A stretch of DNA of 64,000 nucleotides from Escherichia coli (GTDB taxonomy: Bacteria; Pseudomonadota; Gammaproteobacteria; Enterobacterales; Enterobacteriaceae): assembly GCF_003334385.1 (NCBI RefSeq), contig NZ_QOWN01000002.1, one strand, 5' to 3'. The notes below the pieces were generated by a model. It was not told where the DNA came from, did not search any database, and saw nothing but the letters and a program-made list of their open reading frames with translations. Numbering within the stretch: position 1 is the stretch's first letter; every line of letters starts with the position of its first letter. Shown piece after piece: positions 1,033 to 3,208 of this stretch. The translations under genes were made by a program, and so were the position numbers.

Positions 1033-1062
1033 GCCCGCCGTGGTGTTGCGCCACGGCGGGTT
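1033..1062. terminator. Hairpin between convergent genes (stem cccgccgtgg / ccacggcggg)
   Basis: Perfect 10-bp inverted repeat read directly, followed by TTT, lying between the stop of the + strand aminotransferase and the stop of the - strand permease. Confidence 0.5.
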
Positions 1063-2141
1063 TAATGTTGTCTGTCATACCAATACACCAGGCTCAACGC
1101 CACCAGCACAAACGCTATCGGTAAACCGAGCGCGGTAACAGGTGCGCTCAACGCAAATAGCAATCCCAGATTGACCATGATTTGATAGCTGATCCAGGTG
1201 AGTAAGCCAACGATGACACCTACAGCGAGACGGCTACCCATCCCTGGCGAGCGCGGGGCGCTAAAGGTAAACGGCACAGCCAGCAAAATCATCGCCAGGG
1301 TCAGGATGGGTTGCCCCAGTTTTTCCCACAGTGCAAGGCGGTATTCGCTGCTGGGTTGCCCGGTTTCCTGCAAATAATGGATGTAATGATTAAGCTGACG
1401 GACAGAAAAAGTATTGCCCGGCATTGATAACTCTTCAAGATCCATACTGGTGAAGGCCGATTGCCAGGCAAGATTATCTAATGTTTCCAGCGTTTCTTTG
1501 CCATTCAGCCATTTTTTATGATTCACACCATGCAGGATCCACGTTTTGTCGTCTTCAATGGTGGCACTGCGTGCATAAATGTAGGATTCGAGCGAGAGAT
1601 CGTCGCGATAATGAAAAATCTCCACGCCCACCGGCTGGCCCTGCTCGTTCAGCGATTTCACCGTCACAAATTCATTACCACGCCTGGCCCACAGCATATT
1701 GCCGGTAATGTCATCGTCCTCCCCCAACGCGGTGGCGGTCGATTTGATTTGCAACGCCTGTTGCTGTAATGGCGACGCTACCCACTCATCTATCGCGCCT
1801 AACGAAACAGTCCACAATATCCCTGCAACCAGCGCCACCAGTGCAATACGGAAGATAGAAAACCCCATGCTGCGAATGGCGGTAAGCTCACTGTTTTTCG
1901 ATAACTGCCCCAGGCCGACAATCCCTCCCAATAAGGCGATAAATGGCGAAAGTTCGACCAGTGTGCGCGGTAAGGTCATTAGCACCACCAGCACCGCCTG
2001 AGTCCAGCGATAACCGCCCGGGCTGACATCATCCAGTTCGTTAATCAGGTTGAAGGTGGTAAAAAGCGGCAGCAATAGCCCTGCGGCGGCGGCAAAACCG
2101 AGAAAGAGATGACGGATTAAATAGCGGCTGAAAACATTCAT
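1062..2141 (-). CDS. LptG-like permease (YjgP/YjgQ family), paralogue of the LPS-transport component
   Basis: ORF 1062..2222; I prefer the internal start MNVFSRYLIRHLF, which gives a 4-nt overlap with the upstream gene. Multi-TM protein; the segment LGQLSKNSELTAIRSMGFS resembles the conserved LptG region. Family-level call from memory of LptG. Confidence 0.7.
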   Translation of the reverse strand: MNVFSRYLIRHLFLGFAAAAGLLLPLFTTFNLINELDDVSPGGYRWTQAVLVVLMTLPRTLVELSPFIALLGGIVGLGQLSKNSELTAIRSMGFSIFRIALVALVAGILWTVSLGAIDEWVASPLQQQALQIKSTATALGEDDDITGNMLWARRGNEFVTVKSLNEQGQPVGVEIFHYRDDLSLESYIYARSATIEDDKTWILHGVNHKKWLNGKETLETLDNLAWQSAFTSMDLEELSMPGNTFSVRQLNHYIHYLQETGQPSSEYRLALWEKLGQPILTLAMILLAVPFTFSAPRSPGMGSRLAVGVIVGLLTWISYQIMVNLGLLFALSAPVTALGLPIAFVLVALSLVYWYDRQH

Positions 2142-3208
2142 CGGGAAAATTTCTGCAGCAAAGAGAAGTCGCGTGCGACCAGCATCAGCAGGCCCATTAG
2201 CATGAGTCCGGGTACTAACCACAAACCAGGAATGAGGGGAATCGCGCCGTTAGCCACCAGCGTACGGCAGACGTCACCGCCATAAAAAATGGCAATAAAC
2301 AGCAACGTCAGTGGCAATAACGTTGAAAATCGCCCTTGCCGCGGTTTTACCCGACTTAATGAAATGGCCAGCAGCGCCATCAACAATGCGGTCAGGCCAC
2401 GGCTTTGCCGCCATTGCAGTTCGGCATGATCGGCTGGAAAGACGGAGCGCGCCAGCTCCGTGACCGATTTCGCTTTGCGTTTGACGTTAGGGCTTTGATC
2501 CAGCGGATTCAGATGTAATTGCAGATTACGGTAGATCTGTTCGTTGTCATCACGCCCCTGATGATCGATAAGATAGGCAGTGCCGTTGTGCAACATAACG
2601 GTCGGTTTCTCGGGTGATGGGTCAACCACATCAACCGAACGGGCGCGGAAAATGCGGGTTCGATTGGCAGTAGAAGTATAAATCAGCGCGTCAGTCAGGC
2701 GATTATTATCCTGATCAACCGTCTGCGAAAGGATCATTCGTCCGTTATCGTTAGTGTTAAATTTCTTTGCCCGCAACTGGCGAACATCCAGCTCCGACTG
2801 CGACTGCTGCTCCAGTTGATAAATCTGCGCATAAGCCCACGGACGACCATACATCGACAGAAGGGTGACAAAAATACTTAGCGGTATCGCCAGATAAAGA
2901 ACGGCTTTGTACAAGCGTCCCGGACTGCCCCCCGCCGCAGAGATAGCGGTAATTTCCGAGTCGGTATACATCTGCCCTAGCGTCACGCCAACTGACACAT
3001 ACAGACCAACAGGTAACAACATCTCCAGTGCAATCAGTACTTTGTAGAAAACGATATCCAGCACAACATCAAGAGCTAATGTCCCATTTGCCGCTTCGGT
3101 CAGATAACGCTGTGCGGAGTAGCTGGCGAAAATAAAGATCAGAAAACCGACGATAATCAGCACCAGACGGCGCGTACCACGCATGATGTAGTGTTCAACC
3201 AGCTTCAT
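2138..3208 (-). CDS. LptF-like permease (YjgP/YjgQ family)
   Basis: ORF 2138..3208 (356 aa). Multi-TM protein; LGQMYTDSEITAISAAG resembles the conserved LptF motif LGKLYTESEIT; periplasmic-domain-sized insert between TM3 and TM4. Confidence 0.7.
   Translation of the reverse strand: MKLVEHYIMRGTRRLVLIIVGFLIFIFASYSAQRYLTEAANGTLALDVVLDIVFYKVLIALEMLLPVGLYVSVGVTLGQMYTDSEITAISAAGGSPGRLYKAVLYLAIPLSIFVTLLSMYGRPWAYAQIYQLEQQSQSELDVRQLRAKKFNTNDNGRMILSQTVDQDNNRLTDALIYTSTANRTRIFRARSVDVVDPSPEKPTVMLHNGTAYLIDHQGRDDNEQIYRNLQLHLNPLDQSPNVKRKAKSVTELARSVFPADHAELQWRQSRGLTALLMALLAISLSRVKPRQGRFSTLLPLTLLFIAIFYGGDVCRTLVANGAIPLIPGLWLVPGLMLMGLLMLVARDFSLLQKFSR

Follow-up and report, generated by a model that had tools for sequence, protein, structure and literature searches.

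Why should an Escherichia coli genome carry a second pair of genes for LptF- and LptG-type permeases, which lipid would such a pair carry, and what would power it? These questions are raised by a 64-kb stretch of E. coli DNA (RefSeq assembly GCF_003334385.1, contig NZ_QOWN01000002.1; the whole 64,000 nucleotides are called the window here), which encodes the pair at 1062-3208, close to its left edge. An initial annotation, made from the letters of the sequence, had described an orphan paralogue pair of lptF and lptG, the housekeeping lipopolysaccharide (LPS) export genes, with no adjacent ATP-binding cassette (ABC) ATPase. It had proposed a dedicated transporter for a substrate other than LPS, either borrowing the housekeeping LptB or using a novel energiser. 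On the evidence below, the two genes, called lptF2 and lptG2, are likely to supply the membrane subunits of an additional Lpt-type ABC extractor, one that serves the sphingolipid of the adjacent gene cluster and works with the housekeeping LptB.

Family membership of the permease pair

The pair comprises two genes:
2138..3208, minus strand: lptF2, LptF-family permease, 356 amino acids
1062..2141, minus strand: lptG2, LptG-family permease, 359 amino acids

The lptG2 start given here is the ATG used by PGAP; a mechanical list of open reading frames (ORFs) runs on to a GTG at 2222. The lptF2 stop overlaps this start in an ATGA at 2138-2141, in agreement with the translational coupling and the lptF-then-lptG order described initially. 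The order is general: lptF2 lies ahead of lptG2 on the same strand in all 78 loci found in a genome scan, which took one genome per species, used patterns from a 6-sequence alignment and reached gamma- and betaproteobacteria only. A 15-sequence alignment contained no stretch conserved enough to serve as a search pattern.

Both proteins match their family profiles (Pfam PF03739, TIGR04407, TIGR04408) above the curated cut-offs and over the whole model. LptF2 scored 318 bits against TIGR04407 (LptF; NCBIfam cut-off 230), covering model positions 2-346 of 347, and LptG2 scored 308 bits against TIGR04408 (LptG; cut-off 240), covering positions 2-350 of 351. PGAP calls the genes lptF and lptG because these scores exceed the NCBI equivalog cut-offs. 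When the proteins were compared with PDB sequences using phmmer, LptF2 gave a full-length match to 5x5y_F (E 4e-32), and LptG2 matched a solved LptG chain over its full length (E 5e-42) as well as 6mhu_G (E 2.6e-41). In these alignments residues 4-353 of LptF2 were placed on 6mjp_F and residues 3-351 of LptG2 on 6mhu_G, and the end-to-end matches span the six transmembrane helices and the periplasmic beta-jellyroll. The matched chains come from Pseudomonas, Vibrio, E. coli, Shigella, Klebsiella, Enterobacter and Acinetobacter. BLASTP against the K-12 proteins gave 29% identity over 268 amino acids for LptF2 and LptF (E 3e-22) and 28% over 350 amino acids for LptG2 and LptG (E 2e-38). The two motifs quoted in the initial annotation are present as described, TLGQMYTDSEITAIS in the LptF-like and KNSELTAIRSMGFS in the LptG-like protein. 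On these sequence grounds the pair are true members of the LptF and LptG families and not look-alikes, as had been recognised at the outset.

Within Escherichia, ratios of nonsynonymous to synonymous substitution rates (dN/dS) of 0.04-0.05 for lptG2 and 0.05-0.08 for lptF2 point to strong purifying selection on both. One E. coli record annotated as GspC (P0019; 456 amino acids, PF11356 plus PF03739) matches LptG2 with 100% identity along 72% of its length, and looks like a deletion or mis-assembly that joined gspC to the 3' part of lptG2.

Conserved coupling helices and the absence of a linked ATPase

LptF E84 and LptG E88 are coupling-helix glutamates that reportedly contact LptB (Simpson et al. 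2016). The pairwise alignment with LptF and LptG that had been proposed as a check places LptF2 E85 on K-12 LptF E84 and LptG2 E85 on LptG E88. The glutamate is kept in 78 of 78 LptF2 and 77 of 78 LptG2 relatives.

We then scanned for an ATPase by testing each ORF of at least 100 amino acids for a Walker A motif together with an LSGGQ-type signature. No such ORF was found in the 64-kb window or in the 35-kb locus of E. coli C, which extends 15 kb past the left window edge. The only Walker A ORFs flagged encode the neighbouring proteins YghR, YghS and YghT, all of which lack the ABC signature. The statement that no LptB-like ATPase lies nearby was thus borne out, and none turned up just outside the window on the left, the kind of find that was to have spoken against it. 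Across species the picture is similar. No ABC nucleotide-binding ORF lies within 10 kb of the pair in 55 of the 78 loci; the remaining 23 contain mostly fused MsbA-like half-transporters of about 580-750 amino acids, and the roughly six ORFs there that are stand-alone or N-terminal nucleotide-binding domains lie at least 5 kb from the pair. An LptB-like gene adjoins the pair in none of the 78.

The lack of a linked ATPase is nonetheless ordinary for this family, since the housekeeping genes are arranged likewise: in K-12, lptF and lptG sit between pepA and yjgR, and lptB is 1.14 Mb away in the lptC-lptA-lptB operon. The 'orphan' status of the pair is therefore not the anomaly that it was initially taken for. 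As the coupling glutamates are conserved and no ATPase is conserved in the locus, docking of LptF2-LptG2 onto LptB is the simplest reading.

The pair lies in a ceramide-synthesis locus

The gene that converges on lptG2 is cut by the left edge of the window:
1..1027, plus strand: spt (serine palmitoyltransferase), 3' part; the gene begins 146 bases before the window

The truncated ORF matches serine palmitoyltransferase (NCBIfam NF047599, E 6e-147), and PGAP annotates spt at this place in E. coli C. In that strain, the locus contains yghO on the minus strand, encoding a bacterial ceramide synthase-type N-acyltransferase (bCerS), followed on the plus strand by aasR (fatty acyl-AMP ligase), cerR (NAD-dependent epimerase-family reductase), acpR (acyl carrier protein) and spt. 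Convergent with this group are lptG2, lptF2, a YtfJ-family gene, a gene for a 274-amino acid protein, full-length yghQ, yghR and yghS. Judged by its gene content, the locus is a complete ceramide-synthesis cluster (yghO/bCerS, aasR, cerR, acpR and spt): the five genes needed for dihydroceramide are all present and have been kept alongside the pair. The Spt, AcpR and AasR proteins of E. coli BL21 are biochemically active (PMC9386255). The initial proposal of a dedicated transporter for a substrate other than LPS is very probably correct, although it had missed the sphingolipid context; it is the neighbouring spt and its locus that allow a likely substrate to be named.

In K-12 MG1655 (3130146-3131340; locus L004), the IS5 element insH9 replaces aasR, cerR, acpR, spt, lptG2, lptF2, the YtfJ-like and 274-amino acid protein genes and the 5' part of yghQ. 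This IS5-associated deletion explains why K-12 lacks spt and both lpt paralogues and why its annotated yghQ is a truncated remnant. It also means that the pair is dispensable. Of 5426 complete E. coli genomes, 4536 carry a 5-kb segment of the locus, with 80% or more of the segment retained in 4092, so that most E. coli genomes, K-12 not among them, encode a ceramide pathway together with an Lpt-type extractor of its own.

Relatives of the pair track spt loci

LptG2 orthologues with 62-75% identity occur throughout the Enterobacterales, and a phmmer search of 1.84 billion cluster representatives returned 5768 LptG2 relatives. A quick neighbour-joining distance tree, built without support values, groups E. 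coli LptG2 with Pseudomonas and Methyloversatilis sequences in a 10-representative clade. The clade has a 7-member sister group and stands apart from the LptG of E. coli, P. aeruginosa and V. cholerae. Contigs were examined for seven members of the clade or sister group (Serratia, Hafnia, P. umsongensis, Methyloversatilis and three metagenome contigs), and all seven carry sphingolipid-locus genes. In six of them an lptF2-lptG2 pair is close to spt and to genes for an acyl carrier protein, a reductase and an AMP-ligase; contig L007, the seventh, is short, stops before spt and is syntenic with L006. The arrangement varies. The spt operon of Serratia is found upstream of the transporter operon and is not convergent with it, and in the Pseudomonas, Methyloversatilis and metagenome contigs the pair is accompanied by nucleotidyltransferases, a CDP-alcohol phosphatidyltransferase, a metallophosphatase and often a DAGK-type kinase.

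The genome scan gave the same result on a larger scale. Full 10-kb flanks were available for 59 of the 78 loci; spt lies within 10 kb in 58 of these, and at least one of the five ceramide genes is present in all 59. Every one of the 10 loci that lack all five ceramide genes is truncated. Taken together, the sequence comparisons place the relatives of the pair in a clade that is separate from housekeeping LptG and tied to spt loci. A search with Spt itself returned, among the matches listed, close Enterobacterales relatives only. A distant LptG-like representative, P0252, is encoded by a lone gene adjoining a metallophosphatase gene with no spt in its flank, and is uninformative on linkage.

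Three records carry names at odds with their sequences. The record titled Martelella alba BGMRC 2031 (L021) has a locus 67% identical to LptG2 with a full Enterobacterales module, a eukprot record (P0165) holds an ACP-Spt fusion 99% identical to E. coli Spt, and one from Vagococcus sp. WN89Y (P0470) holds a canonical LptF 87% identical to that of E. coli. All three are likely cases of misclassification or contamination.

Residues at the LptC interface and in LptG

In LptF, Arg212 is a beta-jellyroll residue at the interface with LptC, and the sole suppressors obtained that let E. coli live without LptC are R212G, R212S and R212C (PMC4986956, PMC9972910). In these suppressors the transporter forms a six-protein bridge in which LptA directly touches LptF, and overexpression of LptA is needed (PMC4986956, PMC9972910). 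Substitution of LptF Tyr230 with p-benzoylphenylalanine (pBPA) gives crosslinks to LptA in the R212G suppressor background, and this residue is cited as part of an LPS-binding site at the LptF-LptC interface (PMC9972910).

We examined both positions in an alignment anchored on the conserved L207 and G210. All 123 canonical LptF sequences sampled, which come from Enterobacteriaceae, Vibrio and Pseudomonas only, have both R212 and Y230. Among the 78 LptF2 sequences the first position is never Arg; there, Ala (45), Ser (21), Gly (6), Thr (4), Val (1) and Pro (1) are found. At the second position just 2 of 78 have Tyr and the other 76 have Leu, Met or Phe. E. coli LptF2 carries neither mark of the housekeeping exporter; its A211 occupies the position of R212 (HNGTAY in LptF2, NQGTRF in LptF). 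The LptF2 clade thus resembles the suppressors in having mostly Ala, Ser, Gly or Thr and never Arg, Ser and Gly being two of the three suppressor changes. The suppressors, however, are single changes in an LPS transporter, whereas LptF2 differs at many other positions.

Because LptF2 lacks the canonical Arg212 and Tyr230, its hand-off may not need LptC, a tentative suggestion drawn from one alignment column and the analogy with the suppressors. Such a hand-off would fit the lack of an LptC-like gene in these loci. A fuller scheme can be imagined, although as a whole we consider it doubtful: the LptF2 of gamma- and betaproteobacteria would be a natural 'LptC-bypass' LptF, and LptB2F2G2 would hand its lipid straight to LptA in a bridge of six proteins, in competition with LptB2FGC for both LptB and LptA. 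The cargo in Enterobacterales would then be an undescribed sphingolipid with a head group from a module of YghR/S/T, the CHAD-like protein, the MOP flippase and the cysteine-free thioredoxin-fold protein. The preprint on the Caulobacter counterpart of the pair (bioRxiv 10.64898/2026.04.12.717747) does not mention the replacement of R212 and Y230, and LptC-independent hand-off may be new; the Enterobacterales head-group module is unstudied.

In LptG, residues K34/K40/K41 of the E. coli protein align with N31/D37/D38 of LptG2, and the clade has acidic or polar residues there. Loss of these lysines was considered as a sign of a non-LPS substrate and was discarded, since the canonical LptG of P. 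aeruginosa also lacks them; this part of the alignment is uninformative.

Proposed mechanism and alternatives

In the mechanism that we propose, a ceramide-derived lipid would be built at the inner membrane by the products of the yghO/bCerS, aasR, cerR, acpR and spt cluster, and would be flipped, probably by the MOP-type YghQ. The LptF2-LptG2 heterodimer would dock a dimer of the housekeeping LptB via the conserved coupling helices, and the LptB-driven pair would extract the locus's own lipid from the inner membrane. What was established here is family membership, the coupling glutamates, linkage to spt loci across species, the absence of a dedicated ATPase, and purifying selection. Direct experiments come from Caulobacter only, where LptF2 and LptG2 co-purify as a complex and both pull down the sole LptB, and where deletion of lptC2, lptF2 and lptG2 is tolerated only in cells lacking spt or the ceramide kinase, their loss being lethal only when the anionic sphingolipid is made (Uchendu, Isom and Klein, 2026 preprint; bioRxiv 10.64898/2026.04.12.717747). 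That the E. coli pair acts in the same way, the nature of the E. coli lipid, and its route past LptF2 are inferred.

Several points weigh against this mechanism. The function of the E. coli proteins is read from their sequences and from the Caulobacter analogy, and for orthology with the Caulobacter pair, as opposed to independent duplication, the evidence is Figure 2B and the Discussion of the preprint. The head-group genes of E. coli differ from those of Caulobacter, so the substrate may differ in charge and size. E. coli also has many other ABC ATPases that may be conceivable partners. The literature searched contains no report of an E. coli sphingolipid, and the cluster could be silent under laboratory conditions.

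The last point invites the reading that the pair is a cryptic, unexpressed remnant without present function in E. coli, all the more as K-12 lost the region without obvious cost. We consider this very improbable, given that the ORFs are intact, that dN/dS is 0.04-0.08 across Escherichia lineages and that at least 80% of the 5-kb segment is retained in the 4092 genomes counted above. A back-up or specialised LPS exporter, for instance for modified lipid A or core, that is unrelated to the neighbouring genes would account for the scores above the equivalog cut-offs and for the PGAP names, but is equally hard to credit: identity to the housekeeping pair is just 28-29%, the clade tracks spt loci in 58 of 59 full-flank species across several gene arrangements, the two residues of the LptF-LptC interface are systematically replaced, and K-12 exports LPS normally without the pair.

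Two further alternatives, both unlikely, deserve somewhat more weight. The case for LptB in E. coli is indirect, and an energiser other than LptB could be either an ABC ATPase encoded elsewhere or YghR/S/T, which carry Walker A motifs and are probably co-transcribed upstream of the pair in Enterobacterales. These three proteins are not ABC ATPases, however; they lack the signature and resemble thymidylate kinases. Most Pseudomonas, Azotobacter and betaproteobacterial loci with the pair do without them: of 33 lptF2G2 loci outside the Enterobacterales, 25 have no match (Azotobacter, Nitrococcus, Methyloversatilis and most Pseudomonas) and 8 Pseudomonas loci have at least one. The conserved LptB-contacting glutamates and the LptB pull-downs with Caulobacter LptF2/G2 (bioRxiv 10.64898/2026.04.12.717747) also speak for LptB. 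Of the two power sources envisaged initially, borrowed LptB thus gains support from the Caulobacter counterpart, while the novel energiser has none. The remaining alternative concerns the cargo. Sphingolipid loci characterised so far contain nothing equivalent to the Enterobacterales module, with its MOP flippase, CHAD-like protein, three kinase-like proteins and YtfJ-like protein; the cluster might have another product, and the pair might accordingly handle a long-chain base, an acylated amino lipid or a glycan that is linked to lipid and flipped by YghQ. Against this, all five dihydroceramide genes are conserved beside the pair, and the linkage holds in Pseudomonas and betaproteobacteria, where the head-group module is wholly different (CDP-alcohol transferase, DAGK-type kinase, metallophosphatase). 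Extraction of a ceramide-derived lipid with the help of LptB therefore remains the reading that we favour.

Other features of the locus

The remaining features around the pair are as follows:
1030..1064, no strand: G+C-rich hairpin between the convergent spt and lptG2; 16-pair stem with 10 G-C pairs
3239..3799, minus strand: YtfJ-family periplasmic protein with a signal peptide, a thioredoxin-like fold and no cysteine, directly upstream of lptF2
3811..4635, minus strand: hypothetical 274-amino acid protein, all-helical, CHAD-like fold (weak)
4635..5984, minus strand: yghQ, full length, MOP-superfamily flippase-like membrane protein (weak NCBIfam MOP flippase match)
6030..6788, minus strand: yghR, P-loop protein, thymidylate-kinase-like (weak dTMP-kinase matches; Walker A, no ABC signature)
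6820..7533, minus strand: yghS, paralogue of yghR
7707..8399, plus strand: yghT, third P-loop paralogue, divergently transcribed

The seven minus-strand genes from yghS to lptG2 are separated by intergenic gaps of -4 to 45 bases and probably form an operon with yghS as its first gene. A promoter-like site is present at 7611..7583, near yghS. Promoter and terminator scans gave no more sites than in shuffled sequence, and only the 1030-1064 hairpin stands out; it is likely a bidirectional terminator.

The YtfJ-like protein matches TIGR01626 with 212 bits, and its AlphaFold2 model (pLDDT 84) gave TlpA-, ResA- and peroxiredoxin-like proteins as top Foldseek matches (E 1e-7). Lacking cysteine, it cannot be a thiol-disulfide oxidoreductase. 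The gene is found in 45 of the 78 related loci, which are of Enterobacterales type by sequence in every case. The 274-amino acid protein has no Pfam match and no PDB sequence match. Its AlphaFold2 model (pLDDT 91) is most similar to the polyphosphate-binding CHAD domain 6qv5 (probability 0.99, TM score 0.51, E 0.08), and its conserved motifs are RARYKHLRFA, FHDVRKI and INGLMGDKHDEMV. The modelled fold, next to three thymidylate-kinase-like proteins, suggests phosphate chemistry on the lipid head group. Both proteins were considered as LptC2- or LptA-like beta-jellyroll partners of the pair, and were rejected on account of their models, which are a thioredoxin-like fold and a CHAD-like helical fold.

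Orthologues of YghQ from Serratia and Hafnia match Pfam Polysacc_synt. The sphingolipid loci of Pseudomonas and Methyloversatilis encode, next to or near spt, an MsbA-like fused ABC half-transporter of about 580 amino acids (L008 1-233, P. umsongensis; L009 15019-16731, Methyloversatilis; and L047, L056-L059, L061-L063, L067, L077, L079, L085 and L089). This half-transporter and the Enterobacterales YghQ may be alternative flippases for one step. Some Enterobacterales loci, among them those of Rosenbergiella, Sodalis sp. dw_96 and Serratia sp. M24T3, lack YghR/S/T although the remainder of the module is present, and the matches in a few Pseudomonas loci have 31-38% identity. Homology of YghR/S/T to the Caulobacter ceramide kinase CpgB was also considered and dismissed, CpgB being a DAGK-type kinase with a GGDG motif and YghR/S/T being thymidylate-kinase-like P-loop proteins.

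Comparison with known systems

If the system is active, E. coli would have a second LptB-dependent lipid in its outer membrane, which would matter for the action of Lpt-targeting antibiotics, for the competition over LptB and LptA, and for the way in which hosts recognise gut and uropathogenic strains. The value of the present analysis is narrower, because the concept of sphingolipid export by LptF2/LptG2 with a shared LptB has been published for Caulobacter; the E. coli pair is probably a representative of it. What is added here is the fit of the E. coli pair to that concept, linkage counts over about 60 species, and a testable prediction of LptC independence.

The closest structural reference is the housekeeping E. 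coli LptB2FG(C) complex (PDB 6MHU, 6MI7). The two pairs belong to the same family, have the same length and align end to end, including the beta-jellyroll. They share the lptF-then-lptG order with overlapping stop and start codons (a one-base overlap in the K-12 pair) and both coupling glutamates, and both are unlinked to lptB. They differ in their 28-29% identity, in their surroundings (the spt cluster as opposed to pepA/yjgR), in the change of LptF R212 to mostly Ala or Ser and of Y230 to Leu, Met or Phe in the paralogue clade, and in the dispensability of the second pair.

LptC2, LptF2 and LptG2 were named in the sphingolipid region of Caulobacter, where selective transport of phosphosphingolipids was suggested (Padilla-Gómez et al., 2024; PMC11324152). 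Figure 2B of the 2026 preprint draws the locus of E. coli UTI89 beside that of Caulobacter, and its Discussion places lptF2/lptG2 in many alpha- and gammaproteobacterial sphingolipid loci and describes LptC2 as restricted to Caulobacter (10.64898/2026.04.12.717747). CpgB, which phosphorylates ceramide in Caulobacter, is a kinase of the DAGK type (PMC10331486). As in E. coli, the LptF2/LptG2 genes of Caulobacter crescentus (CCNA_01214/CCNA_01213) form a second lptF-lptG pair inside an spt/acpR/cerR/aasR/bCerS locus; neither locus has a copy of lptB, and a flippase-like gene is nearby in both. In contrast to Caulobacter, the E. coli locus has no LptC2, and its head-group genes are those for YghR/S/T and the CHAD-like and YtfJ-like proteins in place of CpgA/B/C.

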